A DNA stretch of 64,000 nucleotides, from the NCBI GenBank assembly GCA_963737265.1, contig CAVTRY010000015.1, forward strand, positions 1-64,000, written 5' to 3'. The notes under the pieces are model-generated. The model was not told where the DNA came from. It saw only the letters and a program-made list of their open reading frames with translations, and searched no databases. Position 1 is the stretch's first letter. The number at the start of each line of letters is the position of its first letter. Both the position numbers and the translations under genes were made by a program. Origin of the DNA: an uncultured delta proteobacterium. Its GTDB lineage: Bacteria; Myxococcota_A; Polyangia; Fen-1088. Of this stretch, positions 11,022-61,895 are shown in pieces.

Positions 11022-13445
11022 TCACGACGGGGTACGAATGCCGAGCGTCCTCACCATGGTCGTCCAAATATGCTCGAAATCCGCCTTGCGCCACAGCGCC
11101 AGCGTGTGACGGCGCCCGCCTTCCGCAAGCCGACTCGCGCAATCGGGATTGTCCAGCACGAGAGCAACCGTTCGCGCGAGATCTTCGGTTTCGGGCGCGA
11201 AAAACATCGCGGTATTGCCGTGGTCGAGCGACTGCGCGATGGCCGAATCGTCCGGGACCAGAATGGGAACGCCACTGGCCAGGGCTTCCAGATTGACGAG
11301 ACCCAGGGTATCCACGCGGCTGGCGAAGACGAACACGCGGGCCGAGGCGTAGAGGTTGCGCAAGACCTCGCCTTGTTGAAAGCCGAGGAAGACAACGAAT
11401 TCCTTGTCCCTGCATCGCATTTCCAGATCCCGTCGCAATGGCCCGTCGCCCACGATGACGAGCAAAGGCGGGTTCTCGCGCTCCTGCAGACTCTCCACAG
11501 CCGCCACCACCAGGGGAATGTTCTTCTCTTCCGACAGACGCCCGACGCTGAGAATGATGGGCCGGTCGCGCGTGTCGACGCCGAGGCCGGTAAAGGCGGT
11601 GGCCGAAGACTTGTGCGGCGAGAAGTCCGCCGGGTCGACCGCCACGGGCATGAGCGTGATGGTCCTTTCCGGCACGCCCATGGCGACCAGCTTGTCGCGC
11701 GAGGCTGGCGAAAACGCGAACACGCGATCCACCGCGCGGTAGAACCAACCAAGGTAACTGCGCGCCAGCTTGGCCAGGCCCGGTTCGCCAGTGAGGGCGG
11801 CAAGGAGATCCGGAAGGTCGGTGTGGTAGCTGGCCGTGACTGGCAGGCGCAACAGCCGGCCCGCTGCCAGGCCAGCCAGCCCCATCGGACCGGGTGTCGA
11901 CACTTCCACGTGCGTGATGCCTTTCCGCCACAGCATCTCCACCGTCGCGGCGAGCGAAGGAATGGTGAGCTCGAAGCCGGGATAGATGGGAAGGTCGAAG
12001 CGAGCCACGAGCGGGATGCGTTCTGCGTCGCGCGGTTCGTCCTTGCCCGCGGCTGCTTCGCCTGGGGGCGTGCTGCCGCAGGCCGCGAACCAAACCTGGC
12101 GGCCGGCCTTGCTGGCTTGCTGGCCGAATCGTCCGCACCAGATGGCGACGCCATCGACCTTGTCGAGGGAATCCGAAAAAACCGCCAGGCGTTCGGGCGG
12201 ATTCGGCGCCGGAAAGGTGGTCCAGTCCCGCCAGACGTCGCGGATCTGGCTTTCCTGCTTGGCAAAATGGTTGGCGGCAAAAAGCATCGGCGCGGCCGCT
12301 ACCAAGGCACCCGTCAGGTCGGGCAGGACCGCCAAGACACCGTAGATGTCGAAGGCCAGGATCGAGTCGGCCAGATTCTTGACGGTCTTGGCTAGCAGGG
12401 CATCGCTCATTTGCACGACCGCCGTGCTGACGCGTTCGTCGCACTCGGCGCTCGGCACCTCGGGCGTTCGGCTGATGTCGATGGCCGGCTGGCCAACATG
12501 GGCGATCTTGCTTGCGGACGCCACCAGGCTTTCCACCAGGGCGGTCGCTGTTCTGGTCGTATCCCGTGTAATTCGCGGAGGACGTCCGGCAATGCAGTCC
12601 ATCAGATCCACGAAGGGGCTCTGGCCGCGCTGCCCGTCCTTGCATTCGCGCCGGAAGTGCTCGTAGCTGGTGTGTTTGATACAAGCGGCCATGCGGTTCA
12701 TGTCCGCGGTGCTGCCTACCGGGCGCCCTTCGCCGCGCATGATCCTGTCGAGGAAGGCCGCAGCGTCGAGCTCGCCGTCGGTTGCGGTGAACACCGTGCC
12801 GCAGCGCCGGTGGACGTGATCGTCCGAGCCGGCGGTCAGCGCGGGCCGGCGCGCGCCACCCTCGGGAAGGGGAATTCCGTGTTTGCGCGAAAGCGCCTCA
12901 AGCACCTCGGGCGTTAGCGATCCCAGCAGATGCGCCATGCTTGGATCCGTCCGTCGGTCGACCAGGCCGTTGAGGGATTCGAGCGTGGAGAAGAGAACCA
13001 GGCTCTTTTCCAGCGTGACTGCGTCGAGCCGCCAGTTCGAGCTCAGCAGGGGATGAGCCAGACCATGCGCCAAACCAGTGGCGCGCAGGTAGCGCGACAG
13101 ATCGTAAATGTTGTCGCGTCGGCGCTGGAGCTCCTGGTGGTGGTCCGCGGTGATGTTCCACACGAGGACGTGCATCACGCAGCCGTTCTCGGGAAAGCGG
13201 GTCGTCACTTCCTCGGACAGAAAAAAGTCGGAACGGTCTAAAAGGCGAAGGCCGCCCTCGATGCTGTCGTGGTCGGTGAGGGTCACGAGCGTCATACCGC
13301 GTGTTTTGCACAGCTCGTACTGTCGCACGGGGTTGGCGTAGCTTTCCGGACAACCGAAGAACTTCGTGTACCACTCGTCGTTCATCACCGAGGCGTCCGA
13401 GTGTACGTGGAGGTCGCATCGGCTGACCGCATCAAAGGAATCCAT
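11022..13445 (-). CDS. PHP-domain + GT4 glycosyltransferase fusion
   Basis: N-terminal DLHVHS, TLTDHDS, AHP and AGSDDH (PHP); C-terminal YHTD, VGRLSEEKN, VGDGP and DTLGLVNLEALASGVP (GT4). Confidence 0.88.
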   Translation of the reverse strand: MDSFDAVSRCDLHVHSDASVMNDEWYTKFFGCPESYANPVRQYELCKTRGMTLVTLTDHDSIEGGLRLLDRSDFFLSEEVTTRFPENGCVMHVLVWNITADHHQELQRRRDNIYDLSRYLRATGLAHGLAHPLLSSNWRLDAVTLEKSLVLFSTLESLNGLVDRRTDPSMAHLLGSLTPEVLEALSRKHGIPLPEGGARRPALTAGSDDHVHRRCGTVFTATDGELDAAAFLDRIMRGEGRPVGSTADMNRMAACIKHTSYEHFRRECKDGQRGQSPFVDLMDCIAGRPPRITRDTTRTATALVESLVASASKIAHVGQPAIDISRTPEVPSAECDERVSTAVVQMSDALLAKTVKNLADSILAFDIYGVLAVLPDLTGALVAAAPMLFAANHFAKQESQIRDVWRDWTTFPAPNPPERLAVFSDSLDKVDGVAIWCGRFGQQASKAGRQVWFAACGSTPPGEAAAGKDEPRDAERIPLVARFDLPIYPGFELTIPSLAATVEMLWRKGITHVEVSTPGPMGLAGLAAGRLLRLPVTASYHTDLPDLLAALTGEPGLAKLARSYLGWFYRAVDRVFAFSPASRDKLVAMGVPERTITLMPVAVDPADFSPHKSSATAFTGLGVDTRDRPIILSVGRLSEEKNIPLVVAAVESLQERENPPLLVIVGDGPLRRDLEMRCRDKEFVVFLGFQQGEVLRNLYASARVFVFASRVDTLGLVNLEALASGVPILVPDDSAIAQSLDHGNTAMFFAPETEDLARTVALVLDNPDCASRLAEGGRRHTLALWRKADFEHIWTTMVRTLGIRTPS

Positions 13446-39965: not shown

Positions 39966-40784
39966 CTACAGGCAGCACCCCGGCGGAGGCGGTGGGAGTG
40001 GAGCCGTTCCCCAGCAGACGAAGTTGCCGTCGGTCTTCAATCCGCACTCTGAAGCGCCCGCATGGATAGACGTGAATGTGTCTTCCGGTGGAATATCGTA
40101 GCCGCGGCCCCCGCAGGCTACGGTACCATCCGTCTTCAGTCCGCATACAGAATCACCAGCACTAACGGAAGTGAAAGTACCGGCGGGCGGAATCACGTAG
40201 TTGTCGCCCCAACAGGCTATGGTGCCGTCCGTCCTCAACCCGCAAGCGCAAAAAGCACTTCCGAGGGAACGTGGCACTACTTTCTTCTCCAAGATCGTCG
40301 TTCTGGTGAGCCAAAGTGCAATCATCACCGGTAAGTTGACGACGAGAGCCCAGCCTCGGATACGCTCGAATGCGAAAGTCACCAACGTAAAGCTGTCAGC
40401 GTAAAAGCCCGATGTCCAGAGTCGGTCTGCGCCAGACACAGCGAGACCGCATAGACCCAGCATCGTATGTCGATACTGGAACCCTGGTACACGTACGCTG
40501 ACCAGTTGTGGCGCAAACACAAGATAGCAAACTGGCCAGCTCAGCCTCTTGCGCCGCGCGAGTCGAAATCCGGCGTATCCAGTCAGAACAGCAAGCGTCG
40601 CAAACAGACTCATCAATCCAAGCGTGGCTCCTGCAGCCGCAACTGTTCCCTCTATCCTCGCTTTCGGAAGGGCGCGCACCGCTTCAACCAGTGGCGGAAG
40701 AACGAAGCTGGTCGTGACAACGCTTCCCAATATGAGTGTTGGTCCTATGGACACAGCAAGAAAGAGAGCCTTGTCTAGCTTCAC
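39966..40784 (-). CDS. Chimeric ORF: membrane protein joined to RCC1-like repeat fragment
   Basis: Hydrophobic N-terminal part with atypical codon usage, then three CGL(R/K)TDG..(A/V)CWG repeats. Confidence 0.5.
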   Translation of the reverse strand: MKLDKALFLAVSIGPTLILGSVVTTSFVLPPLVEAVRALPKARIEGTVAAAGATLGLMSLFATLAVLTGYAGFRLARRKRLSWPVCYLVFAPQLVSVRVPGFQYRHTMLGLCGLAVSGADRLWTSGFYADSFTLVTFAFERIRGWALVVNLPVMIALWLTRTTILEKKVVPRSLGSAFCACGLRTDGTIACWGDNYVIPPAGTFTSVSAGDSVCGLKTDGTVACGGRGYDIPPEDTFTSIHAGASECGLKTDGNFVCWGTAPLPPPPPGCCL

Positions 40785-41214
40785 GATTCTCCGTAGCGAT
40801 GGCTCGGATCATTGTCCACGCTATGAACACGCGCGGCGGTATCCCGCCGAGCAGCCAGACCATGGCTCGATTTTTAGGCTGCTGGTTTGCATAGGTCATC
40901 ATGGCGGCAACCACGACAATCCCCAGAAGACCCATGATCAATCTCGCGACAATCGGCTTCGTAAGACCAGCCCCCGTCCCTCTTGCTAGGAACATGCCGG
41001 GCGTCATCGTCATCGCGACGCCCCTGGTCACGGCTTGTTTCCGGGTTCCCCGCAGCGCATCCGCAACTACGTCCATTCTACCGCTTTCGACGCCGATCGC
41101 CTCTTCGATTTCCCAGAGCTCAGTTCCCCCTGGATTCTTCTCGTCCCCCTCAACGCCCTTGATCATTTCGATGATTCTCACCGCATCATCTAGCAGGTAC
41201 TGCGTCTCATTCAT
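40684..41214 (-). CDS. Hypothetical, probably chimeric or fragmentary protein
   Basis: AGGTGAG SD-like sequence upstream; acidic N-half abruptly joined to a hydrophobic C-half. Confidence 0.4.
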   Translation of the reverse strand: MNETQYLLDDAVRIIEMIKGVEGDEKNPGGTELWEIEEAIGVESGRMDVVADALRGTRKQAVTRGVAMTMTPGMFLARGTGAGLTKPIVARLIMGLLGIVVVAAMMTYANQQPKNRAMVWLLGGIPPRVFIAWTMIRAIATENREARQGSLSCCVHRTNTHIGKRCHDQLRSSATG

Positions 41215-41221
41215 GGCTCAC

Positions 41222-42235
41222 CTATTGGATCGGCACACCCTGAGAGGCTAGATCTGCCAACCCATCTCCGTTCACATCGAGGACTTGACTCGTGGCATAT
41301 CCACCCCCGCATGTGGTTCCGGAGTTATCCACCTCAGCAGTCTGTGTTCCGATGGAAACCGTTCCTTGTCCATTGCTCTGACTTAGAGCGACTCCAGTCG
41401 CAAATGTTCCGTCGGGATTGGCAGTCTGGACGGTCACCAAGGTCCTTTGAACGGGGTCGGGGGTAGTGCCGATACCAACGCCCCGGCAGCTGTTCCCCAT
41501 CTGGAGCAAGTCCGCTCTACCATCTCCGTCGAAGTCGACAATCCGAAGACCGGGGTCTCGCGGTTTGCCGTTGCCATTGAGCACATCCAGCGACTGGCCC
41601 ATCTTATCCGTCGACTGCTGGAAGATTGGGATGGGCGGCAAAAAGCCTCGGCCGCTATTTTTCCACACACGGATACTGGGCGGAGGGTTGAGCGGATTTG
41701 TGGTGCTAGCACTCCCATTGATAGGAATCTCGATGGCATCTGGCAGGCCGTCGCCGTTCACGTCCGCAAACTGATATCTCACCGAGCCCGGTGTCTTGTT
41801 GCTGGAGAGAAGGCTCGTTAGGGCCGTTGAGACTGCACCACCATTCGGGCCACTGAAAAGCGCCCGCATGTGGTTCGACGGCGGGCTCGGGGTTATAGTT
41901 CCGGAATCCCAGGAAACGATTGCGACTTTGCCATCCCCGTTGATATCGGCGAGATAGGAATTCCACGGCTGGGTCAGGTCATATGCTCCAATAAATTTCC
42001 AGGAGCTGGCGGATGAGCCGAAGCCGTTTGAGGAGTTTGGCAAATAGTACCAAAGTGGCGAATGGTTGAGTGAGAACTGAATTGGCTTTATGAGGTCGGG
42101 CAGTCCATCGCCGTCAAAATCGCCAACCATCGGTAACACCGCTTTTCCCTGAAGAACCAAGTTGTCGGTCGGCGCTGGCCCAATGGAGTTTCCTGAGGTG
42201 CCGTCCGCACACCAGTTTGCCGCACAGAGCTCCAA
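41222..42235 (-). pseudogene. Internal fragment of an FG-GAP/VCBS-repeat protein (Rhs/YD-toxin-type N-terminal region)
   Basis: Repeats GDFDGDGLPD, ADINGDG, ADVNGDGLPD, VDFDGDGRAD and LDVNGDGLAD; no signal peptide, both ends abrupt. Confidence 0.7.
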
Positions 42236-45648: not shown

Positions 45649-46659
45649 CTATTCCGAAATCCGCACCAACTGCTTGCCCCGATTCTCGCCCGAGAACAGC
45701 CTAGCCAGGGCGGCCGGCGCATTTTCGAAGCCCTGAACCACATCGACGCGATCCTTGATCCGACCCTCGGCAAACCACGCCGCTAGCGCAGCGGTTGCTT
45801 CGTTGGCGCGGGTCATGTAGTCCGTGACCACGAAGCCCTCCATCCGACCTCTGCGAGTGAGGAGACGAAGATAGGCCTTGGGCCCAGGCGCTGGTGCATC
45901 TAGGTTGTAGGTAGAGATGGCGCCACAGATCACGATCCGGCCGCGCATGGCGAGGTTGCCTAAAGCCGCGTCGAGAGCGGCGCCGCCGACGTTGTCGAAA
46001 AACACGTCGACACCCTTTGGACAGGTCAGGCGCAGGCGGGTGAGCAGGTTCTCATTCTTGTAGTCGATGGCGGCGTCGAAGCCTAGCTCGTCGGTGAGGT
46101 AGCGACACTTTTCGGCGGACCCGGCGAGGCCCACGACACGGCAGCCCAGAAGCTTGGCGATCTGGCCAACCACCGAGCCGGTCGCCCCGGCGGCGCCCGA
46201 CACCAGCACGGTCTCTCCCGCCTTGGCCTGGCCGATGTCGAGTAAACCAAAATAGGCGGTCATGCCGGTGAGGCCGAGCACGCTCATGCCGTTTTCCAGG
46301 GGAATTCCATCGGGGATGGCATTCATGAACGTGGTCTGCCCAGGCCGAACGCAGGCGTAGTCCTGCCAGCCGAAAATCCCCTGTACGCGTTGACCCACGG
46401 GAAAACCCGGGTCGAGGGAGCGGACGACCTCGCCTCCGGCAATGCCGCGCATGACCTCGCCAATGGGCACCGCCGGCAGGTATGTGTCATAGGCCATCCA
46501 GCCGCGCTGGGTGGGGTCGCAGGATAGAAGATCAATGCGTACGAGGACTTCCCCGTCGGCGACTTCGGGGATAGGGGACTCGGTAAGTCGGAAATCGGCG
46601 GGGCATACCAATCCATTGGGCCGCCGGGAAAGTCGCCATTGTCGGTTCGTAATTCGCAT
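45649..46659 (-). CDS. NADP-dependent alkenal/one oxidoreductase (PTGR/CurA-like MDR)
   Basis: LSCDP..RGWM, GMTAYFGL, VSGAAGATGS, FFDNVGG, CGAISTYN, GENRGKQLV. Confidence 0.92.
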   Translation of the reverse strand: MRITNRQWRLSRRPNGLVCPADFRLTESPIPEVADGEVLVRIDLLSCDPTQRGWMAYDTYLPAVPIGEVMRGIAGGEVVRSLDPGFPVGQRVQGIFGWQDYACVRPGQTTFMNAIPDGIPLENGMSVLGLTGMTAYFGLLDIGQAKAGETVLVSGAAGATGSVVGQIAKLLGCRVVGLAGSAEKCRYLTDELGFDAAIDYKNENLLTRLRLTCPKGVDVFFDNVGGAALDAALGNLAMRGRIVICGAISTYNLDAPAPGPKAYLRLLTRRGRMEGFVVTDYMTRANEATAALAAWFAEGRIKDRVDVVQGFENAPAALARLFSGENRGKQLVRISE

Positions 46660-46833
46660 CGATTTTTCCTGAATCGCTCAAGCGGGCCCGCACATCCAGC
46701 GGGGCGAGAGTCAATCTAGCCAGGCGGAGTTTGCTGGCCACACTTGCCTTTCCCGTAGTCGAATGCAATAATCAGTTTAGCCGAGTGGAGTTTGCTTGGC
46801 CACTTTGCCTTTTTTCTAATCGAATAGACCTTC

Positions 46834-47994
46834 ATGACAGAATCAAACGGTTTCGACCTCAGCCCCGCCCAACGCGAGCGCGTGGATGCGGTCCTTCGCT
46901 TCGCTCGAAGTCGCCTTTCACCGGGTGCTCGCGAACGAGAAGCCAAGAGTGTATTCGAACGAGGTCTGTGGACCGAGGCTGCCGACTTTGGCTTGACCGG
47001 ATTGCCCGTCCCCGAGGAATGGGGTGGGGGCGGCCTGGACGCCGTGGACACGATGTTGGTGATTGAGGCCCTGGGCCGCGGCTGCGAAGACGGTGGCCTG
47101 GTGTTCTCGCTTTGTGCGCACATGTTCGCTTCGGTGGTGCCCATTTGGCGATCTGGTGCGAAGGAGCTGCACGAACGCTATCTGAGCGATCTGGCGGCGG
47201 GGAAAATCATTTGCGCCAACGGTACCAGCGAGCCCGAGGCCGGCTCGGATGTGCACGCCATGAAGGCCACTGCCCGTCGCGACGGCAATGGCTATGTCCT
47301 CGATGGCACCAAGTGTTTCATCACCAACGCGCCGGTTGCCGACCTATTTTTGATCTACGCAAAGACCAACCCAGCAGCCGGATTCATGGGGATTTCCGCC
47401 TTTCTCGTTCCGCGGGCAAGCCAAGGTCTTCGCGTCGTTCCCGAACATGGCAAGAACGGCCTGCGCACATCGCCGTGGGGCACGATCTACCTTGAGGAAT
47501 GCCGCGTGCGCGAGGGCGACCGGATGGGTCCCGAGGGCTGCGGGGCTGCCCTGTTCGGTGAGTCGATGGTGTGGGAGCGTTGCTGCCTGTTCGCCTACTA
47601 CGTCGGCGCCATGGCGCGCAGCCTCGACCAATGCATCGATCATGTGCGCTCGCGCCAGCAATTCGGTCATCGCATCGCCAGCTACCAGTCCGTCGCGAAC
47701 CGCATCGTGGACATGAAGCTGCGGCTCGAAACGAGTCGCCTCCTGCTTTACCGTGCCGGCGAGCTGCACCGCCTGGGCAGGCGCTGCGACGAAGCCGTGG
47801 CCATGTGCAAGTTGTGGATCTCCGAGGCGGCCGTTCAGTCGGGGTTGGACGCCATCCAGATCTTCGGCGGCTCGGGCGTGGTGACCGATACGGGGGTCGA
47901 CGCGCTGCTGCGCGATGCCGTGCCGGCGCAGATCTTCTCGGGCACCTCGGAGATGCAGCGGATGATTATCGCGCGAGCGCTGGGCGTCTTCTGA
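46834..47994 (+). CDS. Prolyl-carrier-protein dehydrogenase (PltE/RedW/AnaB-like acyl-CoA dehydrogenase fold)
   Basis: LGRGCEDGGLVFSLCAH..VVPIW, SEPEAGSD, FITNAPVAD, MVWER and IFSGTSEMQ; coupled to a Pro-type A domain. Confidence 0.82.
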   Translation: MTESNGFDLSPAQRERVDAVLRFARSRLSPGAREREAKSVFERGLWTEAADFGLTGLPVPEEWGGGGLDAVDTMLVIEALGRGCEDGGLVFSLCAHMFASVVPIWRSGAKELHERYLSDLAAGKIICANGTSEPEAGSDVHAMKATARRDGNGYVLDGTKCFITNAPVADLFLIYAKTNPAAGFMGISAFLVPRASQGLRVVPEHGKNGLRTSPWGTIYLEECRVREGDRMGPEGCGAALFGESMVWERCCLFAYYVGAMARSLDQCIDHVRSRQQFGHRIASYQSVANRIVDMKLRLETSRLLLYRAGELHRLGRRCDEAVAMCKLWISEAAVQSGLDAIQIFGGSGVVTDTGVDALLRDAVPAQIFSGTSEMQRMIIARALGVF

Positions 47995-49574
47995 TGCCCA
48001 CAGAGACGCGCATAGATCGGTTGGTCGCGCCGATTGCCAAGCTTGCGCCCGATCGCATCGCCGTCGACGGTGTGGGCGAGGCTCTGAGTTATCGCGACCT
48101 CGATGCCTTGGCCAACCGCTTCGCTCGACTTTTCCGCCGCATGGGCGTGGTCCCTGGCGACCGGGTGGGCGTGCATGTGCCGCGCTCGGGTCGCACGGTG
48201 GCCGCCATGCTCGGCGCTTCGCGCGCCGGCGCGGTGTACGTGCCACTCGATCCGAGTTCGCCGCCAGCGCGCATGAAGGTTATCGCCAACGACTGCGGAC
48301 TGGCCCACGTCGTGATCACGCCGGCGCTGCTGGACAACTGGTTGGCCGCGGGTGTGAGCGCGCCGATCCGCCATTTTTTTCTGGCAGCCGATGGGCCGGT
48401 GCCTGCGTTGCCCGCTGGTATCGCCGTTCATCCGTGGTCGGAAGTCATGGCCGAGGATAACGGTCCCGTGGTGGCACCCTCTGACTCGCCCGACGACCTG
48501 GCCTATCTGCTTTACACCTCGGGTTCGACTGGGACGCCCAAGGGCGTGATGATCTCCCATCGCAACGCGCTCGCCTTTTCCGAATGGGCCGCCGAACAGA
48601 TAGCGCTGTCGGCTGACGACCGGGTGGCCTCCGTCGCGCCCTTTCACTTCGATCTGTCGGTCTTCGATCTGTGGGCCTCGCTGTCGCGCGGATCGACCAT
48701 CGTGATCGTGGACGAAAGCATGGTGCTTTCGGGCGCGCGCATGCTTGACCGGATTCGCGAGAAATCCATCACCGTGTGGTACTCGGTGCCGACGGCGCTG
48801 GTGCTGATGCTCGAAAGCGGCGGGCTGGCAGCACGAGGCGCGCCGTCGCTACGCGTGGTCTTCTTCGCGGGCGAGGTGTTTCCCGCACGCCACTTGCGGC
48901 GGACCATGGCGGCGCTGCCCGAGGCCCGGTTCTTCAATCTCTTTGGTCCCACGGAGACCAACGTCTGTCTAGCCCACGAGGTGACGCGCAGCCCAGTCCA
49001 GCACGGCGATGTTATTCCCATCGGCCGCCCAAGTTGCGGAAACAGCGTATGGATCGTCGACGAGCATGGTCAACCCGCACCCGATGGCACGGTCGGCGAA
49101 CTTCTTGTGGACGGCCCCACCGTCATGCTCGGCTATTGGGCCGCGGGCCAGCGAACGCGGGCGCCGCGGCCTTACCCAACCGGCGATTTCGTGGCTCGGC
49201 GTCCTGATGGTGAAATCATGTATCGCGGCAGGCGCGACCACATGGTCAAGGTGCGTGGCTTTCGCATCGAATTGGCCGAGGTCGAGGCGGCGCTTCTTCG
49301 TCACGAAGGGATTCGCGAAGCCATCGCCATGGCCATCGAAGGTCAGTTGGTCGCGGTGGTGCAACCCTCCGACTCCCAGCTTTCGGTGTTGGCCATCAAA
49401 CGCCATGCCGCCACCCACCTGCCTCCGTACATGATCCCCACCGACATCCGCCTGGTGGCCGAAGTTCCCCGCACATCGAGCGGGAAGGCCGATCGCGTGC
49501 GACTAAGAAACGCCGTGGTAGGGGGCGACATCCTTGTATTGAGGCCGTTCGGTCAATCCGCCAATGGGAGTTGA
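47994..49574 (+). CDS. Stand-alone amino acid adenylation enzyme, proline-type (PltF/RedM/AnaC-like)
   Basis: YTSGSTGTPKG, APFHFDLSVFD, VWYSVP, FFAGE, NLFGPTETNVC, PRTSSGK; specificity residues read by eye approximately DLFYFALVCK. Confidence 0.82.
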   Translation: MPTETRIDRLVAPIAKLAPDRIAVDGVGEALSYRDLDALANRFARLFRRMGVVPGDRVGVHVPRSGRTVAAMLGASRAGAVYVPLDPSSPPARMKVIANDCGLAHVVITPALLDNWLAAGVSAPIRHFFLAADGPVPALPAGIAVHPWSEVMAEDNGPVVAPSDSPDDLAYLLYTSGSTGTPKGVMISHRNALAFSEWAAEQIALSADDRVASVAPFHFDLSVFDLWASLSRGSTIVIVDESMVLSGARMLDRIREKSITVWYSVPTALVLMLESGGLAARGAPSLRVVFFAGEVFPARHLRRTMAALPEARFFNLFGPTETNVCLAHEVTRSPVQHGDVIPIGRPSCGNSVWIVDEHGQPAPDGTVGELLVDGPTVMLGYWAAGQRTRAPRPYPTGDFVARRPDGEIMYRGRRDHMVKVRGFRIELAEVEAALLRHEGIREAIAMAIEGQLVAVVQPSDSQLSVLAIKRHAATHLPPYMIPTDIRLVAEVPRTSSGKADRVRLRNAVVGGDILVLRPFGQSANGS

Positions 49575-49587
49575 TAAGGAGTTAGCA

Positions 49588-49839
49588 ATGGAAGAACGCA
49601 TACACAAGACTATCCGCGACTATGTCGTCAGCACCTGGCTGTCCGGCGACGAGCGCGGCTTCGACGACAATACTGACCTATTGCAAGCCGGCATTCTGGA
49701 CTCGTTTAGTACCCTAAACATTGCGGCGTTTCTCGACGAGAGTTTCAAAACGCAGCTCGAACCTTCAGAGATTAATCCACAGAACTTTCGAAGCGTGGCG
49801 AGCCTAGCCGCGATCGTGATGGCCAAGTCGAACAGCTAA
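49588..49839 (+). CDS. Peptidyl carrier protein (PltL/RedO-like)
   Basis: AAGGAG SD; acidic ~83 aa protein with GILDSF Ppant serine and INPQNFRSV. Confidence 0.85.
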   Translation: MEERIHKTIRDYVVSTWLSGDERGFDDNTDLLQAGILDSFSTLNIAAFLDESFKTQLEPSEINPQNFRSVASLAAIVMAKSNS

Positions 49840-49855
49840 TCAGGAGGAAATTACC

Positions 49856-50080
49856 ATGGAAGACACCCTTAGAACCGTCGTAGCCAAGATTGCCGAGATT
49901 ACCCCAGACTTCGAGGCCGATGCCGGACTGCGTGACGACCTTGGCGTGGACTCGGTTCGCGCGCTCGAGCTTATTTTCGAGATCGAAAGGACCCTGGCCG
50001 TCAAGGTGCCGGACAATCGCTATGGGCGAGTGCGAACGTTCAAAGACTTGGTCGCCCTCGTGAGCGATCTCAAGAACTGA
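49856..50080 (+). CDS. Acyl carrier protein
   Basis: AGGAGG SD; DLGVDSVRALEL motif. Confidence 0.9.
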   Translation: MEDTLRTVVAKIAEITPDFEADAGLRDDLGVDSVRALELIFEIERTLAVKVPDNRYGRVRTFKDLVALVSDLKN

Positions 50081-50090
50081 GATTTTCCAC

Positions 50091-51317
50091 GTGTCCTCGC
50101 GACGGAATGTCGTCATCACGGGCTGCGGCGTGGTGAGCGCGGCCGGCAACGACCTCGAGGGCTTCTGGAACGCCCTCATGGCCGGGGCCACTCTCATCGC
50201 TCCGCTCAAGAACTACTCGGCGCCCGAGCTGGATATTCTCTGGGGCGGTGAGGCGACTCTCGACGGTGAGGACGCGATACCAACCGGTGAGGCGACCATG
50301 GCTCGCCGTGAGCGCTGCGATCTGCTGGCCCTGGCTGCGTGCCGCCGTGCCCTGGACCACGCGGGGCTTTGGGGGAACGCGGAGAAGCTGGCGGATACGG
50401 GCGTGGTCATGGGTACGACCGTCGGCGAGGAGCGCCAGGTGGGCGAACTCAGCGAGCGCTGGCCCGCCGAGGGTACGGATGCTCTGGACGCTGGATTTTT
50501 CGACCGGGTGGACAACCACCGACTGGCGGCGTCGCTTGCCACTCGCTTCGGCATGGGTGGTCCCGTGCTTCTCAATGCAACGGCGTGTAGCTCGGGCAAC
50601 GCGGCCGTGGCTTGGGCCTTCGATCTGGTGGCGGGCGGCCAATGCGACGTGGTGGTCGCGGGCGGAGCCGATACTTTCACGCGGCTGCTCTACAACGGCT
50701 TTTCGCGCATGAGTGCCCTATCCAAGGGCGCGTGCAAACCGTTCGATAAGCATCGCGATGGGGTGTCCTTCGGCGAAGGGGCGGGTGTCGTGGTGGTAGA
50801 GTCGCTCGATCATGCGCGCACTCGCGGCGCCCGGGTGCTGGCCGAAATTGGAGGTTATGGCATCAGCAATGACGCCCATCACGTCACCGCGCCCGAACCC
50901 AATGGGGCGGGCTATGTTCGCGCCATTCGGCAAGCGCTTGCGACCAGCGCCACCAATCCGGCGCGCGTGGGTTACATCAGTGCTCACGGCACAGGTACGC
51001 CGTACAATGACCAGGGCGAAGTGCGGGCCATCAAGGCCGTGTTTGGCGACCGAGCGAACGCCATTCCCATCAGTTCGATCAAATCGATTATCGGGCACAC
51101 CAACGGAGCCGCCGGAGCCATCGCCACCATCGCGTGCGTCCTTGCGCTTGCTCATCAGAGGGTTCCACCCACCGCCGGCCTGGTCGAGCCAGACCCCGAG
51201 TTCGGCCTCGACTTCGTGGTTGGGGCGGGACGTCCGGTGACGCTTGATACATGCCTTAACCTTTCGGCCGGCTTTGGCGGCATGAATGCCTGCCTCTTGC
51301 TGGCGAGGGCGCCATGA
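50091..51317 (+). CDS. Beta-ketoacyl-ACP synthase, active KS
   Basis: TACSSG catalytic Cys, SAHGTGT and IGHTNGAAG His-His, GFGG. Confidence 0.92.
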   Translation: MSSRRNVVITGCGVVSAAGNDLEGFWNALMAGATLIAPLKNYSAPELDILWGGEATLDGEDAIPTGEATMARRERCDLLALAACRRALDHAGLWGNAEKLADTGVVMGTTVGEERQVGELSERWPAEGTDALDAGFFDRVDNHRLAASLATRFGMGGPVLLNATACSSGNAAVAWAFDLVAGGQCDVVVAGGADTFTRLLYNGFSRMSALSKGACKPFDKHRDGVSFGEGAGVVVVESLDHARTRGARVLAEIGGYGISNDAHHVTAPEPNGAGYVRAIRQALATSATNPARVGYISAHGTGTPYNDQGEVRAIKAVFGDRANAIPISSIKSIIGHTNGAAGAIATIACVLALAHQRVPPTAGLVEPDPEFGLDFVVGAGRPVTLDTCLNLSAGFGGMNACLLLARAP

Positions 51318-52501
51318 CCCGGCCGTCGCCAGTTGCCATCACCGGCGCGGCCGTCATCACACCGCTCGGCGACAGTCCGGCGGCTTTGGCCCGAGCGCTG
51401 CTGGAGGGACAATCCAAAATCGCGCCCATGACCAATTTTCCAGGTGTGTGGGCTTCTCGTCTGGAGGACTTCGACGCCACTCGCTACGCCAACGTACGCG
51501 GCATGCGGGTCTACAACCGGGCCTCGCGCATGGGCATTGCGGCCACCCGCCTCGCTCTCGTGGACGCGGGGCTAGAAAATGCGGGTCTTTCCGGCGACGA
51601 ACTGGGCATCGTGACCGCTTCGTCCTTCGGTCATCTCGATACCTTGATTGAATATGACCGGAGTCTCGTCGGGCAAGGGCCTTCGCGCACCAATCCTGCG
51701 CTCATGCCGCTGGCCATTCCCAGCGCGCCTGGCGCAGTCATTGCTCTGTCATTCGCGGCCAAGGCGTTTTCCATTACGCTGGCAGCTGGGGGCGCAAGTT
51801 CGCTCGATGCCCTGGGACTTGGCGCGCGTCTCATCCGCGATGGGCGCGCACGTGTTTGTGTGGTGGTATCGGCGTTTTCGCTTACCGACGAATTCTTGTT
51901 GTCGGCGGCGCGCGCGTCGGTGCTCGCTCCTCTAGATGGATTTCGGCCTCTCGACATCGCCAGCCGAGGTACCGCGTTCGGCGAAGCGGCGGCGGCCGTG
52001 GTTCTCGAATCCGTGCAGACCGCGCAGTCCCGCGGCCGGCGAGCGCGTGGTCTTGTGCGCGGCCAATCTTCCCGCTTTGCTCCCACTAGAAACCTGCTAC
52101 CGGCGGCTCTCGTTCGCGCCGCGACCGGCGCCTTGGCGAACGCGGGAATCACACCCGAGGAACTAGCTCTGGTTAGTACCGGCGCCAACGGCGTGCCCGA
52201 GGATGACCGGGCCTTGGCGGCAGGCCTCGGCGACGTCGTCGGTAAGTCCGCCACGCCGGTCGCCGCGTTCAAATCGATGCTCGGCGAGACCGTCGAGTGC
52301 GCGGGGCTCCTGCACACGATTGTTGCGCTGGAATTCTTGAGCGCAGGCCGTGCCGCGGGCATCGCGCGTTTGGCCACGCCCATCCTTCCAGGGCTTGCCT
52401 ACCTGACTCAGTCGTCCGTGTTGAGCGGCCCCCACGCGCTCGTCACCGCCAGCTCGCGCACCGGCGCCGTGTCGGCCTTGGTGGTATCCGCGCATGACTA
52501 A
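51314..52501 (+). CDS. Catalytically inactive KS homolog / chain length factor
   Basis: KS fold (VAITG..., [11 protein letters not shown]) but Cys replaced (LAAGGASS) and both His absent ([15 protein letters not shown]); ATGA-coupled to the KS. Confidence 0.82.
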
Positions 52502-53242
52502 TGCCGATTCCAACGAAAGACGCGTTGCCATTGTGACCGGCGGATCGCGCGGCATCGGACGTGCCATCGTTGAGCATCTGGCGCGGTCTGGCGTCGATGT
52601 CACCTTTACCTATGTCAGCAACGAAGCCGCGGCCAACGCGGTATCCGAAATGTCGGGTTCGCTCGTGCGCGCCGTGCGCGTGGATGCCCGCGACGCCAGC
52701 GCGTGCGCACATCCTTCGTCGAACGGGTCATTGCCGAGCACGGTTGTGTCGACTTACTCGTCAACAACGCCGCGGTGATTCGCGATCGTTTATTGGCCAT
52801 GATGACCCTTCCCGACTGGTCGGTCGTTCTCGAAACCAGTCTCAATGGGCTTTTCGGCACGACCCAACCCGTGGCCAAGCAAATGATGCGCCAGCGTCGG
52901 GGCCGCATCGTCAACCTGACCTCGGTTTCGGGTGTGACAGGGATTGTCGGACAGACGAACTATTGCGCGGCCAAGGCCGCGATTATCGGGTTCACACGAT
53001 CTTTAGCTAAGGAGCTGGCGCCAGTCGGTGTCGTGGTGAATGCAGTGGCGCCGGGCTTCGTGGACACCGATATGCTGGCCGGCTTCTCCGAAGAACAGCG
53101 CGCGAACGCTATGGCTCGCGTGCCCATGCGGCGCTTTGCCACAGCGGACGAGATCGCCGAACTGGTGGGCTACCTTGGCCTTCAAGCCCCGAGCTATCTG
53201 ACCGGCCAAACCCTGATCATCGACGGAGGGCTAACAGCGTAG
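52494..53242 (+). CDS. 3-oxoacyl-ACP reductase (FabG-like KR); frameshift near 52710
   Basis: VTGGSRGIG, then [18 protein letters not shown] and [12 protein letters not shown]. Confidence 0.88.
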
Positions 53243-53248
53243 CTTCAT

Positions 53249-53896
53249 GTGGAAGAAACAAATGCCAACAGCAAGGACGTCGAAAGGATCGCCGTGATAC
53301 CAGAGTTCGTGCGAAAGGGTCTCAGGGGTGCGTTGTCCCTCGTGGCGCGCGAGCACGCCGCACCAGCGTCCAACATCCCGCCTGAGAAGTTGTCCTTGCG
53401 AGACCTTCTTGCCGAGGATTTCGCAACCCACGACGGTCTATTGATGGAACCTGGATTCTGGGCCGTGGCGGTGCATCGCCTGGGCGAACGCGCGACCGGC
53501 GCAGGGCTCGCGTGTGGCCCTCTGGTCATGGCGCACCGGCTCCTGGCCACGGCCGTGGATTGGACCTGGGGTATTTACCTGCCCACAAGCGTCCGTCTCG
53601 GGCGCCGCGTGCGCATCTGGCATCACGGTTCCATTGTCATCAACGCACGCTCCGTCGGCAACGACGTGCATCTCCGCCAGAACACCACCATCGGCCCGGT
53701 GTATTTGCGCGACGCCAATCGCCCGGAGTGCCTGCCCGTGCTTGGCGACGGTGTCGATATTGGCGCCGGAGCCTGCGTACTCGGCGGCGTCTCGGTAGGC
53801 ATCGGGGCGATCGTCGGGGCTAACAGTGTTGTCGTGGACGATGTCCCTGGCGGCGCCACCGCGTTTGGCGTTCCCGCGCGAATTTTGCTCGCATGA
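53249..53896 (+). CDS. Left-handed beta-helix (serine acetyltransferase-like) acyltransferase 1
   Basis: LLAEDF...PGFWAVAVHR, IWHHG, hexapeptide repeats, GVPAR. Confidence 0.82.
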   Translation: MEETNANSKDVERIAVIPEFVRKGLRGALSLVAREHAAPASNIPPEKLSLRDLLAEDFATHDGLLMEPGFWAVAVHRLGERATGAGLACGPLVMAHRLLATAVDWTWGIYLPTSVRLGRRVRIWHHGSIVINARSVGNDVHLRQNTTIGPVYLRDANRPECLPVLGDGVDIGAGACVLGGVSVGIGAIVGANSVVVDDVPGGATAFGVPARILLA

Positions 53897-54507
53897 CTCG
53901 ACCGCTCCATTACAACCGTCCTGTCGTCCATTTCGCCAGCAATGGCGAAACCGATGGCAATCCGAAGAGTATCGGCATCCTGGCGCTCTTGGCCGAGGAT
54001 TTTCGTACCCACGGCAGCGATCCGTTTTCGCCGGGGTTTTGGGCGCTGGCCGTCCATCGTTTTGGCAACTGGCGCATGGGAGTGCGGCGAAAGCTGCTGC
54101 GGGCGCCCTTGTCCGCGATGTACCGGACCGCCGACAACGGGATCGTCGCATTGTGGGGCATTTCTTTGCCGTACAAAATCCGTGTTGGCCGGCGCCTGCG
54201 CCTAGGGCACCACGGCTGCATCATCATGGGTGCGAGGGAAATCGGCGACGACGTGACGGTTCAGAACAATGTGACCATTGGGCTGTTCAGACGAAACGCG
54301 CAGGAGCTTCCGACCATCGGAAATCGCGTAGAGCTGGGCGCGGGCGCGTGCATCGTGGGCGGGGTTTCCGTCGGCGACGATTGCCATGTGGGTCCCAAGA
54401 CGGTACTGGCACGTTCACTCAAGCCCGGCACGGCTGTGCTGGGGATTCCGACTCGTCAGGTGGACCTGGAAGGACTACGGAAGAAGCGAGGATCGATGGA
54501 AGGCTAG
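53893..54507 (+). CDS. Left-handed beta-helix acyltransferase 2 (paralog)
   Basis: LLAEDF...PGFWALAVHR, LGHHG, hexapeptide repeats, GIPTR; ATGA-coupled. Confidence 0.82.
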   Translation: MTRPLHYNRPVVHFASNGETDGNPKSIGILALLAEDFRTHGSDPFSPGFWALAVHRFGNWRMGVRRKLLRAPLSAMYRTADNGIVALWGISLPYKIRVGRRLRLGHHGCIIMGAREIGDDVTVQNNVTIGLFRRNAQELPTIGNRVELGAGACIVGGVSVGDDCHVGPKTVLARSLKPGTAVLGIPTRQVDLEGLRKKRGSMEG

Positions 54508-54680: not shown

Positions 54681-55442
54681 ATGATCCCGATCGGCGACGA
54701 CAACCCGACCCTGCGTTTCCCTTTGGTGACGGTAGCGATTCTCGTGACCCTGGGTCTCGTGTGGCTGTTCGTGCAAGGGGCCGGCCTCGATCCCATGCGC
54801 CTGTCCGAAACCGTGTGCAACTTCGGGCTGGTGCCGGGAGAAATCACCCAGCGCGCGGCGGTGGGAACCGCGGTGCCGCTCGGCATGGGCCTCTACTGCG
54901 TCGTGGATCGCGATCCCATCAACATCCTGACGCCGCTTCTGTCCATGTTTCTGCACGGAGGCTGGGCGCATTTGCTCGGCAACGGTCTATTTCTTTGGGT
55001 CTTCGGCAACAACGTCGAGGACAGCATGGGCCGTGGTCGCTTTCTCATCTTCTACCTTCTGTGCGGCCTGGCCGCGGCCGGCGCGCAGATTGCCATCGAC
55101 CCGGCCTCGCCCGCGCCTATGGTGGGCGCTTCGGGCGCCATCTCGGGCGTGCTGGGCGCGTACATCATTCTCTATCCCCGGGTGCGCGTGCACGTGTTCG
55201 TCGGATTCTTTCTGTTGTCGCTGCCGGCCTACTTCGTGTTGTTGATGTGGATTGGGCTCCAACTCGTCTCCGGCCTGCCGCAGGTGACGTCGCTAAGCCA
55301 CGCGGCCTCGAGTGGCGTCGCCGTGTGGGCGCACATCGGCGGCTTCTTCGCCGGCGTGATTCTGGTCAAGTTCTTCGAGAACCCCGAGCTGGTCAGCGCG
55401 CGGAGCTCCATCCGGCGGCACAACCACCCGACCCATTGGTGA
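54681..55442 (+). CDS. Rhomboid intramembrane serine protease
   Basis: MFLHGGWAHLLGN, MVGASGAISG, WAHIGGF. Confidence 0.93.
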   Translation: MIPIGDDNPTLRFPLVTVAILVTLGLVWLFVQGAGLDPMRLSETVCNFGLVPGEITQRAAVGTAVPLGMGLYCVVDRDPINILTPLLSMFLHGGWAHLLGNGLFLWVFGNNVEDSMGRGRFLIFYLLCGLAAAGAQIAIDPASPAPMVGASGAISGVLGAYIILYPRVRVHVFVGFFLLSLPAYFVLLMWIGLQLVSGLPQVTSLSHAASSGVAVWAHIGGFFAGVILVKFFENPELVSARSSIRRHNHPTHW

Positions 55443-57292
55443 CCCTGCCCTTGCGTCTCGCTGTGGGTATCGTTTGCCTAGCCGCCACGCTCGCCTCCGC
55501 GAAGAGCGCGCGGGCGCGCGACGACGAGCACGTTTGCCGCGAGTCCGCCGACACGCGCATCTGGTGGTCACCGCTGGCGCCCGAGGCGGGGGCGAGGCTT
55601 CGCATCTTGGTGGTAAGCGAGGATGTACGGGATGGCGAAATCCAGGTGACCTTGCCGGGACAGATGCCGCGGCGGATCGCGACCTCGAAGCGCGGCGGAC
55701 CGCCTTTCAGCTTCGCAGCCGACTTACTTCCGTCCAAGCCCGGCAACCTGCGCGTCGATCTGGTTCGCAACAACGAATCCGTCGCGTGCCGTCGCATTTC
55801 CATCGCGGTCCATGGCCACGCGACCGCGCCAGCGCGCGGGGAAAGCCCAGGGGCTTGGCACGCCACCCAGGAATGGAGCCGCGCCACCGAGAATTTCTTT
55901 TCGGCGTGGATCGAGCGCATGTTCGATGCGCCGGCCGACGAGTCGCTGGGCTTTCCCTCGCTGGCGCCGGTGTTGCACGATCCCGCGCGCAACTTTCTGT
56001 GGGGCTACCTCGGCTTGCGCGAGGACGATCCCAAGAATCGCGACATTCCGCGCGCGGTGCCCGACTGCGCGGACTTGCCCTATTACCTGCGGGCCTATTT
56101 CGCCTGGAAGATCGGGCTGCCGTTCGCGCTACGCGACTGCGACCGAGGCAAGACCGACCGGCCGCCGAAATGCGGGTCAATCCTGCACAACGAACAGGCC
56201 GAGGATTCCATTCGCGGCCACGGCGCGCTCGAACGATTTCGCGCCTTCTTGCGCGTGCTCGCCAATCGCGTGCACTCGGGCAGCGCGCGTACCGCCCTCG
56301 ACGACGACGAGACGGATTTCTACCCGGTGGCGCTCACACGCACGGCCCTGCGGCCGGGGACCATTTACGCCGATCCCTTCGGTCACGTGCTCATGGTTGC
56401 CGCCTGGATCGACCAATCGCCCATGAGCGGTGGCTTGCTTTTCGCCGTGGACGGCCAGCCCGACAATTCCGTGGGCCGCAAGCGCTTCTGGGAAGGCACC
56501 TTCATGTTCGCCAGCGACACCGCCAGCGCCGGCCCGGGCTTCAAGGCCTTTCGGCCGATTGTTCGCACGCCCAAGGGTGACGCCGCGTTCGCGCCGCTGC
56601 CCAATCAAGCCTTGCGCGCCGACCGCCGCTTTGCTCCCTTTTCCGACGAGCAGGCACACCTCGATCGCGACACCTTTTACGCGCGCATGGCCAAGCTGAT
56701 CAATCCGGCGGGCCTGGACGCGCGTGCGGCCTACGCCGAGACCATGAATGCCCTGGTGGAACAGCTCACCACGCGCGTCGGCTCGGTCGCCAACGGCGAG
56801 CGCTTCATGCGCGAGAAGAACAACCCGGTGGTGCCCATGCCGGTGGGACCGAAAATCTTCGAAACGGTCGGACCGTGGGAAGATTATGCGACGCCTTCGC
56901 GCGACATGCGCCTGCTCATCGCCCTGCGCGTTCTGACCGGCTTGCCGGCGCGCATTTCAGAGCACCCCGACCTGTTTATGCTGGGCGGACGCGCGCCAGC
57001 GGCGGTGCGGGCGGAAATCGAAGGGCTGCACGAGCGGCAGATTCGCGAACGCGGCGTCGACTACCAACGCAGCGACGGCTCGACCTTTCGCCTCACCGTG
57101 GCCGACATCCTCGCCCGCCGGGCCACGCTGGAGATGGCGTACAACCCGAACGACTGCGTCGAGATTCGCTGGGGGGCGAGCGAGGGAAGCGGCGACTTCG
57201 CCACCTGCAAGCGCCATGCGCCCGAAGAGCAGCGAGCCCAAATGCAGGAATTCCGCGCCTGGTTTCACGAGGCCCGCCGGCCGCCACGCTGA
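55439..57292 (+). CDS. Exported protein with papain-like/NlpC-type Cys-His motifs
   Basis: GTG overlapping the rhomboid stop; signal peptide; PDCADLPYYLRAYF and DPFGHVLMV. Confidence 0.6.
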   Translation: MTLPLRLAVGIVCLAATLASAKSARARDDEHVCRESADTRIWWSPLAPEAGARLRILVVSEDVRDGEIQVTLPGQMPRRIATSKRGGPPFSFAADLLPSKPGNLRVDLVRNNESVACRRISIAVHGHATAPARGESPGAWHATQEWSRATENFFSAWIERMFDAPADESLGFPSLAPVLHDPARNFLWGYLGLREDDPKNRDIPRAVPDCADLPYYLRAYFAWKIGLPFALRDCDRGKTDRPPKCGSILHNEQAEDSIRGHGALERFRAFLRVLANRVHSGSARTALDDDETDFYPVALTRTALRPGTIYADPFGHVLMVAAWIDQSPMSGGLLFAVDGQPDNSVGRKRFWEGTFMFASDTASAGPGFKAFRPIVRTPKGDAAFAPLPNQALRADRRFAPFSDEQAHLDRDTFYARMAKLINPAGLDARAAYAETMNALVEQLTTRVGSVANGERFMREKNNPVVPMPVGPKIFETVGPWEDYATPSRDMRLLIALRVLTGLPARISEHPDLFMLGGRAPAAVRAEIEGLHERQIRERGVDYQRSDGSTFRLTVADILARRATLEMAYNPNDCVEIRWGASEGSGDFATCKRHAPEEQRAQMQEFRAWFHEARRPPR

Positions 57293-59895: not shown

Positions 59896-61576
<1,681 letters not shown>

Positions 61577-61604: not shown

Positions 61605-61895
61605 TTACTTTTCGATCACGCCCAGCACTTCTTCCTCGCGCAGGATGATGTGCTCGGTGCCGTCGATCTTGATCTCGGATCCGCTGTATTTTCCGAACAG
61701 CACGCGGTCGCCCTTCTTCACTTCCAGGGGGCGAATCTCGCCCTTGTCGTTGGGCTTGCCACCGCCCACGGCGATGACCTCGCCTTCGGCCGGCTTTTCC
61801 TTGGCGGTGTCGGGAATGATGATGCCGCCCTTCGTCTTCTCTTCCTCGGCGACGCGGCGAACTAGAATGCGATCATGTAGCGGGCGAACTTTCAT
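61605..61895 (-). CDS. groES: Co-chaperonin GroES
   Basis: [28 protein letters not shown]. Confidence 0.97.

Follow-up and report, generated by a model that had tools for sequence, protein, structure and literature searches.

A putative pyrrolyl-primed, dissociated type II polyketide synthase-like operon in uncultured soil Myxococcota

Pyrrole starter units for natural products are made from proline by the same three proteins in the pathways to pyoluteorin (PltF/PltL/PltE) and prodigiosin (PigI/PigG/PigA) and in the Bmp4/Bmp1/Bmp3 system: an adenylation (A) enzyme, a peptidyl carrier protein (PCP) and a flavoenzyme of the acyl-CoA dehydrogenase (ACAD) family. The resulting pyrrolyl groups are handed to type I polyketide synthases (PKSs), to nonribosomal peptide synthetases (NRPSs), to the fused PigJ/RedX proteins, to a thioesterase or to a halogenase. 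Reducing type II PKSs, such as the aryl polyene (ApeO-ApeC/ApeR) and ishigamide (Iga11-Iga12) systems, combine a discrete ketosynthase (KS), a Cys-less KS-like partner, an acyl carrier protein (ACP) and a FabG-like ketoreductase (KR). Here we analyzed a stretch of 64,000 nucleotides from an uncultured delta proteobacterium of the phylum Myxococcota_A (assembly GCA_963737265.1, contig CAVTRY010000015.1, positions 1 to 64,000; hereafter the window), in which an operon at positions 46834-54507 joins the three starter proteins to a set of the second kind. We consider it probable, judging from the sequences, that this operon encodes a reducing, type II PKS-like pathway that is primed with a pyrrolyl group and makes short chains, and that it is an accessory operon of uncultured soil Myxococcota. 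Every part belongs to a known family and the first steps are conventional; novelty lies in how the parts are wired together, in the lack of a dehydratase and in a distribution limited to uncultured soil Myxococcota. The operon and the reductase gene next to it are composed as follows.

45649-46659, minus strand: CurA/YncB-like NADPH-dependent medium-chain double-bond reductase (ADH_N_2 and ADH_zinc_N), divergent and outside the 46834-54507 stretch
46834-47994, plus strand: prolyl-PCP dehydrogenase, PigA-type ACAD-family flavoenzyme (NCBIfam PigA equivalog)
47994-49574, plus strand: free-standing A enzyme, predicted to be L-proline specific (AMP-binding, AMP-binding_C, AA-adenyl-dom)
49564-49839, plus strand: prolyl-type PCP (weak PP-binding match; resembles prolyl carrier structures)
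49856-50080, plus strand: ACP, presumed malonyl/extension carrier (PP-binding; fatty acid synthase (FAS)-type ACP models)
50091-51317, plus strand: active FabF-like KS (N- and C-terminal ketoacyl-synt domains)
51314-52501, plus strand: dead KS partner in the 'chain length factor' position (Gly/Gly/Glu at the triad sites)
52494-53242, plus strand: FabG-like KR, in two frames in the window (adh_short on both pieces)
53249-53896, plus strand: left-handed beta-helix (LbH) acyltransferase 1, serine-acetyltransferase-like (Hexapep)
53893-54507, plus strand: LbH acyltransferase 2, serine-acetyltransferase-like (Hexapep, 43.6 bits)

The nine genes of the operon lie on the plus strand and are separated from their neighbors by -11 to +16 bases. 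Their reading frames and family assignments (Pfam and NCBIfam) agreed with an earlier note on this DNA, made from the sequence without database searches, and the coordinates matched to the base, confirming that the tightly packed, co-oriented set is real. The note had also remarked on the lack of a halogenase or phosphopantetheinyl transferase (PPTase) in the cluster, and none was present among the flanking open reading frames (ORFs) that we scanned. Genome-wide, there was no match to the Trp_halogenase family, and the three PPTase-family matches all lie on contigs other than that of the window. A scan for promoters and terminators returned one promoter-like site at 46744-46772, 5' of the ACAD gene, which is no excess over shuffled sequences (mean 1.8).

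We then asked how widely the gene set is conserved. A scan of one genome for each of 185,579 species yielded 24 close loci (49-64% identity) and one unrelated match. All 24 came from metagenome-assembled genomes (MAGs) bearing the label Myxococcota or 'delta proteobacterium'; no cultured organism was among their sources. Orthologues of the KS partner define this family. Counts of conserved genes were obtained by tblastn of the window proteins against the 24 loci together with hidden Markov models (HMMs), rather than by clustering of ORFs. The earlier expectation that the genes are conserved together was borne out: a core of seven genes (ACAD, A enzyme, PCP, ACP, KS, partner and KR) was complete in 21 of the 24 loci and colinear in 20, the KR and an LbH gene being placed before the KS in locus L040. 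In the other three (L022, L028 and L036) the core is cut by contig ends, and wherever sequence is available every core gene is there. Such recurrence is far beyond what chance would give. None of the genes flanking the operon in the window (GH5, hydrolase, rhomboid, a 617-residue ORF and pilin-like genes) recurred in any of the 24 loci, which argues that the cassette moves as a unit. Orthologues were found in five of the 12 other genomes of the genus and in one of 400 genomes sampled evenly across the phylum. A metagenome protein collection held at least 202 relatives of the partner (one 94% identical, the others listed 47-62%) and 416 of the KS at E <= 1e-60; the few that were named carried Polyangiaceae or Anaeromyxobacter-type MAG labels.

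Among the starter genes, the ACAD provided the clearest assignment. It passed the NCBIfam PigA equivalog model (564 bits; cut-off 500) and was the only ACAD of the genome to do so, the runner-up scoring 236 bits; no ACAD exceeded this cut-off in any of 14 control genomes. Its closest solved relatives were the L-prolyl-PCP dehydrogenase 5ZW0 (the best, at 4.7e-114), the dehydrogenase of 6CXT (9.6e-94) and AnaB (4IRN, 8.7e-91). When 72,556 plasmids were searched, the best match (57.8% identity) was the ACAD of a Methylocystis plasmid cluster. The genes of that cluster encode, in order, a class III aminotransferase, a methyltransferase, a carrier, a class I/II pyridoxal phosphate (PLP) enzyme, an AMP-binding enzyme, a fused 870-residue KS protein, a PPTase, a nitroreductase-family protein and the ACAD, an arrangement that we take to be that of a bipyrrole (MBC) pathway by comparison with the pig cluster.

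The likeness to AnaB raises an alternative, namely that the ACAD carries out a two-electron oxidation and goes no further, like AnaB of anatoxin biosynthesis. A pyrroline starter would then be extended and its imine would cyclize to a bicyclic alkaloid-like product. Consistent with this, the RedW model was missed (431 bits; cut-off 650) while the PigA model was passed, so that membership of the pyrrole clade is not uniform across models, and the reductase conserved nearby is of a medium-chain type that would act on an imine or an enone. However, AnaB gave the ACAD a lower score (308 bits) than did PigA (384.6 bits) and Bmp3 (317.8 bits), two proteins whose annotation places them in pyrrole pathways, and its passing of the PigA equivalog cut-off and its identity to the ACAD of the canonical bipyrrole cluster also speak for the four-electron oxidation. 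We therefore regard a pyrroline starter as unlikely, and conversion of proline to a pyrrole building block as the most likely function of the trio on the sequence evidence.

The A enzyme carries AMP-binding and AMP-binding_C domains and scored 368 bits with AA-adenyl-dom (cut-off 317); its best solved relative, over the full length, was PltF (6O6E, 4.5e-111). We read its ten-residue specificity signature as DLFYFALVCK, at positions presumed from the GrsA numbering and placed by the conserved core motifs. Read in the same way, PltF has DLLYLALVCK (eight of ten residues shared with the window) and the PigI-type enzyme of the Methylocystis cluster DLFYLALVCK (nine of ten). Of the 22 alignable family members, 19 have the same signature as the window. 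As for the PCP, its closest solved relatives were all prolyl carriers (the Bmp1 carrier domain 6CXT_A at 1.1e-10, PigG at 5.8e-8 and PltL at 4.6e-3), and its serine lies within a Leu-Asp-Ser motif.

The two Phe residues found where PltF has Leu, together with a best NCBIfam match of the PCP to an ornithine-lipid carrier model, could mean that the A enzyme activates a substrate other than proline, for example another cyclic imino acid, and that no pyrrole is made. We consider this highly improbable, since the PigI-type enzyme of the canonical bipyrrole cluster also has one of these Phe residues, and its exact signature occurs in the remaining three of the 22 family members; both proteins encoded next to the A enzyme, the dehydrogenase and the PCP, are prolyl-type, and the ornithine-lipid match lies far under its cut-off. 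The proposal of the earlier note that the operon opens with a proline-derived pyrrole starter module is thus well supported. With a proline-type A pocket, a prolyl-type carrier with its serine and an ACAD of the PigA/PltE/RedW clade, the trio belongs to the known prolyl/pyrrolyl family of type II NRPS starter modules in each of the sequence tests that we applied.

Unlike the described pyrrolyl systems, the operon in the window would pass its pyrrolyl group to separate KS and dead-KS proteins, for which it encodes a dedicated ACP and KR, and it has no halogenase. The KS retains the complete triad (Cys166, His299 and His336). In its partner, whose gene overlaps that of the KS by 4 bases, Gly replaces the Cys, Gly the first His and Glu the second. 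A discrete KS with Cys-His-His and an adjoining Cys-less KS-like partner are the formal features of a type II system, and the Pfam and NCBIfam assignments and triad residues corroborate the discrete KS, Cys-less KS, ACP and KR that had been noted from the sequence. Features of aromatic type II PKSs were absent: the partner has Gly rather than Gln, and there were no cyclases or aromatases among the conserved neighbors. The ACP (PP-binding, 42.3 bits) matched FAS-type ACP models and ordinary ACP structures best.

Comparison with solved structures placed the KS near FabF. It scored 359 bits with the FabF model, under the cut-off of 494. Its best structural match was 9S5H_B (2e-95, 323 bits), followed by FabF enzymes (about 1e-76 to 1e-65), Iga11 (6KXD_A, 1.7e-64, below about 25 FabF entries), the act KS (3e-60), AntD (1.6e-54) and ApeR (7F27, 3.9e-49). 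The partner's best match was another chain of the same entry, 9S5H_C (3.6e-41, 145 bits). As both proteins best match two chains of one entry, assembly of the KS and its dead partner into a heterodimer is supported. By eye, roughly half of the residues are identical in the alignment with 9S5H, and the companion entry 9S5I also holds an ACP. We found no paper citing the code 9S5H, literature matches to the code being unrelated. A KS pair on a Bacillus cereus plasmid was considered as the possible identity of 9S5H and rejected as a different protein; it is 38% identical to the window KS. The accessible text of PMC8358021 identifies 7F28 and 6QSP as ApeO-ApeC entries, and these were not among the best 60 of 130 matches for the KS or the best 60 of 70 for the partner. 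Taken together, the pair appears by descent to be an offshoot of FabF.

Functionally, the closest parallel for the proposed hand-off is PigJ/PigH (RedX/RedN), where a pyrrolyl group on a PCP is likewise passed to a KS with an inactive KS-like partner for one condensation with malonyl-ACP. In the Methylocystis cluster and in a similar one from Thioclava, both KS halves reside in one protein of about 790-870 residues, whereas those of the window are discrete. The window KS is 33% identical over 278 residues to the active half of the fused Methylocystis protein, and the partner showed no significant likeness to it; thus the comparison with PigJ can be drawn only by analogy. The score with the PigJ model itself was 99.9 bits against a cut-off of 900. 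A PigH-type ACP, a PLP-dependent oxoamine synthase and tailoring genes are present in the Methylocystis and Thioclava clusters, whereas no PLP-dependent PigH-type enzyme and no PigM/F/N tailoring genes were present in the window operon or the scanned neighbors of its relatives, in which a KR takes the place of PigH. The next-best pathway-specific NCBIfam models were those of the cispentacin pair AmcF-AmcG (261 bits for the KS and 101 for the partner, both short of the cut-off of 325). That pair extends its starter, which is not acetate and is loaded by an adenylating enzyme, only once. Its starter and its downstream enzymes differ from those of the window.

On plasmids of cultured bacteria, the pyrrole trio stood beside fused PigJ/RedX-type proteins or a FabH-like KS, and the only plasmid match to the partner was a distant one (27% identity) in an unrelated Bacillus cluster. 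The megaplasmid of the fungal endosymbiont Mycetohabitans rhizoxinica (L051, 7128-11095) encodes a FabH-like KS, an ACP, an adenylation enzyme and a PigA-like ACAD (43% identical), and is another wiring of a proline-type starter to a discrete condensing enzyme. A Pseudohalocynthiibacter plasmid (L052, 7564-11741) encodes a carrier, a PigA-like ACAD, a methyltransferase and an adenylation enzyme with no KS; this set adjoins polysaccharide export and glycosyltransferase genes.

The earlier note had described the operon as a pyrrole analogue of the aryl polyene systems. Under that description the KS pair would be the iterative core of a highly reducing type II PKS whose product is a pyrrole-capped polyene resembling aryl polyene or ishigamide-type pigments. 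The parts list of a reducing type II system is indeed present, Iga11 is a clear relative of the KS, and the C-terminal piece of the KR reached 195.6 bits with a flexirubin reductase model (cut-off 340). However, tblastn with the FabZ of the genome, two other hotdog frames and the Bacillus FabZ detected no FabA/FabZ-type dehydratase in the 64 kb window or in the 24 loci, other dehydratase folds lying outside this search. In a positive control, the same queries recovered the FabZ beside the Bacillus KS pair, and the three FabA-family matches of the source genome, FabZ included, were all on other contigs. The ApeO/Iga systems differ from the window in this respect and also in their starter, which is an aryl-CoA or acetyl unit rather than an amino acid borne on a PCP. 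Moreover, FabF enzymes outrank both Iga11 and the act KS as relatives of the KS, and ApeO-ApeC are outside the best matches given above.

Two further findings speak against a polyene. The conserved neighbor of the core is a CurA-like C=C reductase, which would saturate the chain rather than preserve a polyene. In addition, neither a thioesterase nor genes for lipid anchoring or export (acyl- and glycosyltransferases, LolA-like proteins, MMPL), which accompany aryl polyene synthesis, were among the genes conserved across the 24 loci. We therefore do not retain the aryl polyene analogy, and regard a pyrrole-capped polyene as quite unlikely. The plasmid used for the positive control (Bacillus cereus, L045, 7742-14565) is itself a reducing type II set that carries its own dehydratase: FabG, ACP, KS, dead-KS partner and FabZ are encoded with an aminotransferase and an aldehyde dehydrogenase beside an NRPS.

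The KR listed in the earlier note is present, although the note had overlooked that in the window it is split: one frame covers 52494 to about 52700, and a second continues from about 52694 to 53242. It has the Gly-rich nucleotide-binding motif and the Tyr-x-x-x-Lys motif, and its C-terminal piece scored 217 bits with a 3-oxoacyl-ACP reductase model. In the related loci the KR is intact. Spanning contigs from all four public short-read runs, compared over 52200-53300, lacked two letters at about 52705, and one of them (run X1, 151 bases) showed no other difference from the window. Removal of two bases at this point joins the frames into a protein of the length of the intact relatives; the split thus results from two extra bases near 52705. 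Run X1 may derive from the sample of the window itself, and so is not independent of the organism; it nevertheless represents a different kind of assembly that disagrees at this point. We conclude that the break is most likely an assembly error and not a dead gene. In a soil metatranscriptome library (X20), three contigs, each differing from the window at 17-29 letters, covered most of 52270-53256, a span that takes in the 3' end of the partner gene and the KR. As these belong to a related organism, and as the presence of a contig is no proof of transcription, we make no claim of expression.

Other genes are broken in a similar manner. GroEL is split in the window (59896-61576, minus strand) into overlapping frames at 60602-61576 and 59896-60696, near GroES (61605-61895) and a DnaJ-like frame from 63047, and this looks like the same kind of insertion or deletion error as in the KR. 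Another ACAD of the genome (G000:C7:380191-381319) was matched in two pieces, one with an internal TGA, a further indication of frame errors in the assembly. Split genes were also seen in several of the related loci on long MAG contigs.

Beyond the seven-gene core, the linked genes were more variable. The double-bond reductase matched, over its full length, the NCBIfam model of the curcumin/dihydrocurcumin reductase CurA best (332.7 bits; cut-off 440). CurA is named for the reduction of aryl-conjugated enones; we know of no role of the CurA/YncB family on carrier-bound pyrrolyl-enoyl thioesters. Fifteen of the 24 loci had an orthologue with 61-70% identity no more than 10 kb away from the core, in varying arrangements: divergent on the upstream side, downstream, or in the same orientation as the core. 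At three loci without it, another conserved frame of about 325-360 residues occupied the divergent upstream slot (L021:4348-5328, L026:4290-5261 and L041:4335-5414, minus strand); these frames had no Pfam match, and that of L021 no NCBIfam match either. The LbH family, detected with an HMM built from the window copies, was found in 14 of the 24 loci as one or two copies on either strand. The two LbH acyltransferases previously assigned to the system are therefore present in the window but stand outside its invariant core. They are paralogues (42% identical). The first scored 90 and 83 bits with the EpsC and CysE models, both below cut-off, and the best solved relatives of the second were serine acetyltransferases (6.4e-13).

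In two fen MAGs, a condensation-adenylation-thiolation-thioesterase (C-A-T-TE) NRPS module lies directly 3' of the KR (L019, 8296-12354; L029, 11903-15778), and a third locus (L033) has an A-T-TE frame. The A-domain pockets of these modules resemble the glycine signature. The L019 and L029 modules point to an N-acyl amino acid as the end product in those lineages. In L041, the KR is followed directly by a Sfp-type PPTase (11951-12595). This variation at the end of the locus, where LbH genes, a thioesterase-bearing NRPS module or neither may be present, suggests lineage-specific modes of release.

We propose the following pathway. The A enzyme would load L-proline onto its dedicated PCP, and the PigA-like flavoenzyme would oxidize prolyl-S-PCP to pyrrolyl-2-carboxyl-S-PCP. 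The active KS, in a heterodimer with its dead partner, would then accept the pyrrolyl group and condense it with malonyl-ACP, charged by the housekeeping malonyl transferase, to give 3-oxo-3-(pyrrol-2-yl)propanoyl-ACP. Loading, oxidation and one decarboxylative condensation are the steps with most support, which comes from close homologues of known function and from strict co-conservation. Subsequently, the FabG-like KR would reduce the ketone to the 3-hydroxy thioester, a step we include because an intact KR of this type is always present. The later steps are more speculative. Water may be lost from the activated pyrrolyl carbinol spontaneously, through the housekeeping FabZ, or after O-acetylation by an LbH enzyme, and the CurA-like enzyme may saturate the heteroaryl-conjugated double bond to give a 3-(pyrrol-2-yl)propanoyl unit, which might be extended again. 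The ease with which a hydroxyl next to a pyrrole is lost, the conserved enone-type reductase and the O-acetyltransferase-like LbH proteins together suggest a route in which no dehydratase is needed to remove the hydroxyl and the double bond is then saturated. Release may vary by genome, through acyl transfer by LbH enzymes in the window, coupling to an amino acid by the C-A-T-TE modules in some relatives, or self-release. The expected product would accordingly be a short, reduced pyrrolyl-acyl compound and not a polyene.

Several observations weigh against this pathway. The reductase is absent near the core in nine of the 24 loci (two of them short contigs) and LbH genes in ten, so that the dehydration, saturation and release steps are not universal as written. 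The signature of the A enzyme departs from that of PltF at two sites, Leu to Phe at both, and its numbering follows the GrsA convention rather than a computed alignment to a reference. The PCP falls below the Pfam PP-binding cut-off (18.8 against 20.8 bits), and its ornithine-lipid match, although the best in NCBIfam, reached 48.6 bits against a cut-off of 130. Four-electron oxidation to pyrrole and two-electron oxidation to pyrroline are not separable by sequence, the match to AnaB also being strong, and the sequence is compatible with single and with repeated elongation. The closest solved KS pair, 9S5H, carries only the name given by its depositor, 3-oxoacyl-ACP synthase. A dehydratase other than of the FabA/FabZ type might have escaped the search. 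Finally, each proposed step rests on homology.

The FabF-, FabG- and AcpP-like character of the KS, KR and ACP raises a further alternative, in which the cassette provides only the primer: pyrrolyl-hydroxyacyl-ACP would enter the housekeeping FAS and give omega-pyrrolyl fatty acids for membrane or outer-membrane lipids. A FabZ is available elsewhere in the genome, no enzyme for release adjoins the core in several loci (L021, L026 and L041), and in L041 the KR is followed by the PPTase. However, the dedicated ACP and the dedicated enone reductase argue for a self-contained pathway, the modules of L019 and L029 suggest that the product is a small acyl-amino acid, and the patchy distribution within the genus and phylum is unlike that of a core lipid trait. 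We consider this alternative very unlikely, and favor a self-contained pathway to a short pyrrolyl-acyl product.

The earlier note did not recognize the operon as a characterized pathway, and our literature search gave the same answer: no description of a pyrrole-primed discrete KS pair was found, in a search that most subscription journals and supplements lay beyond. In the accessible text of a 2025 review of type II PKSs (PMC12664062), neither 'pyrrol' nor 'proline' occurs. Provisionally, therefore, we regard the gene wiring as undescribed. More tentatively, and with clearly less than even confidence, we suggest that this is the first pyrrole-primed dissociated type II system, that it removes the beta-hydroxyl without a dehydratase (by LbH O-acetylation and elimination, or spontaneously through an azafulvene) and saturates the product with the CurA-like enzyme, and that it makes a new class of pyrrolyl-acyl compounds, which may be free, capped with glycine or cyclized to a pyrrolizinone. 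If confirmed, the system would add a heteroaromatic starter derived from an amino acid to the short list accepted by dissociated KS pairs, and would provide a compact, portable set of seven small genes for capping an acyl chain with a pyrrole. The combination of no dehydratase with a linked enone reductase also poses a mechanistic question, namely by which route the hydroxyl is lost. The family is so far confined to uncultured Myxococcota of peat, fen and soil that are reachable through DNA alone; as Myxococcota are valued for their natural products, the operon in the window is a target for synthesis and heterologous expression.

The source genome is 6.55 Mb in 25 contigs (99.5% complete, 7.6% contamination), with the window on contig 15. 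Downstream of the operon, a rhomboid protease gene (54681-55442) is followed by a 617-residue frame (55439-57292, plus strand) that matched no Pfam or NCBIfam family and is absent beside the cassette in the 24 related loci. In 2 kb windows, the G+C content of the stretch is 0.57-0.67. Positions 40001-42000, which hold frames with no family match and a frame for an FG-GAP repeat protein, form the minimum at 0.568; all the others fall within 0.61-0.67.

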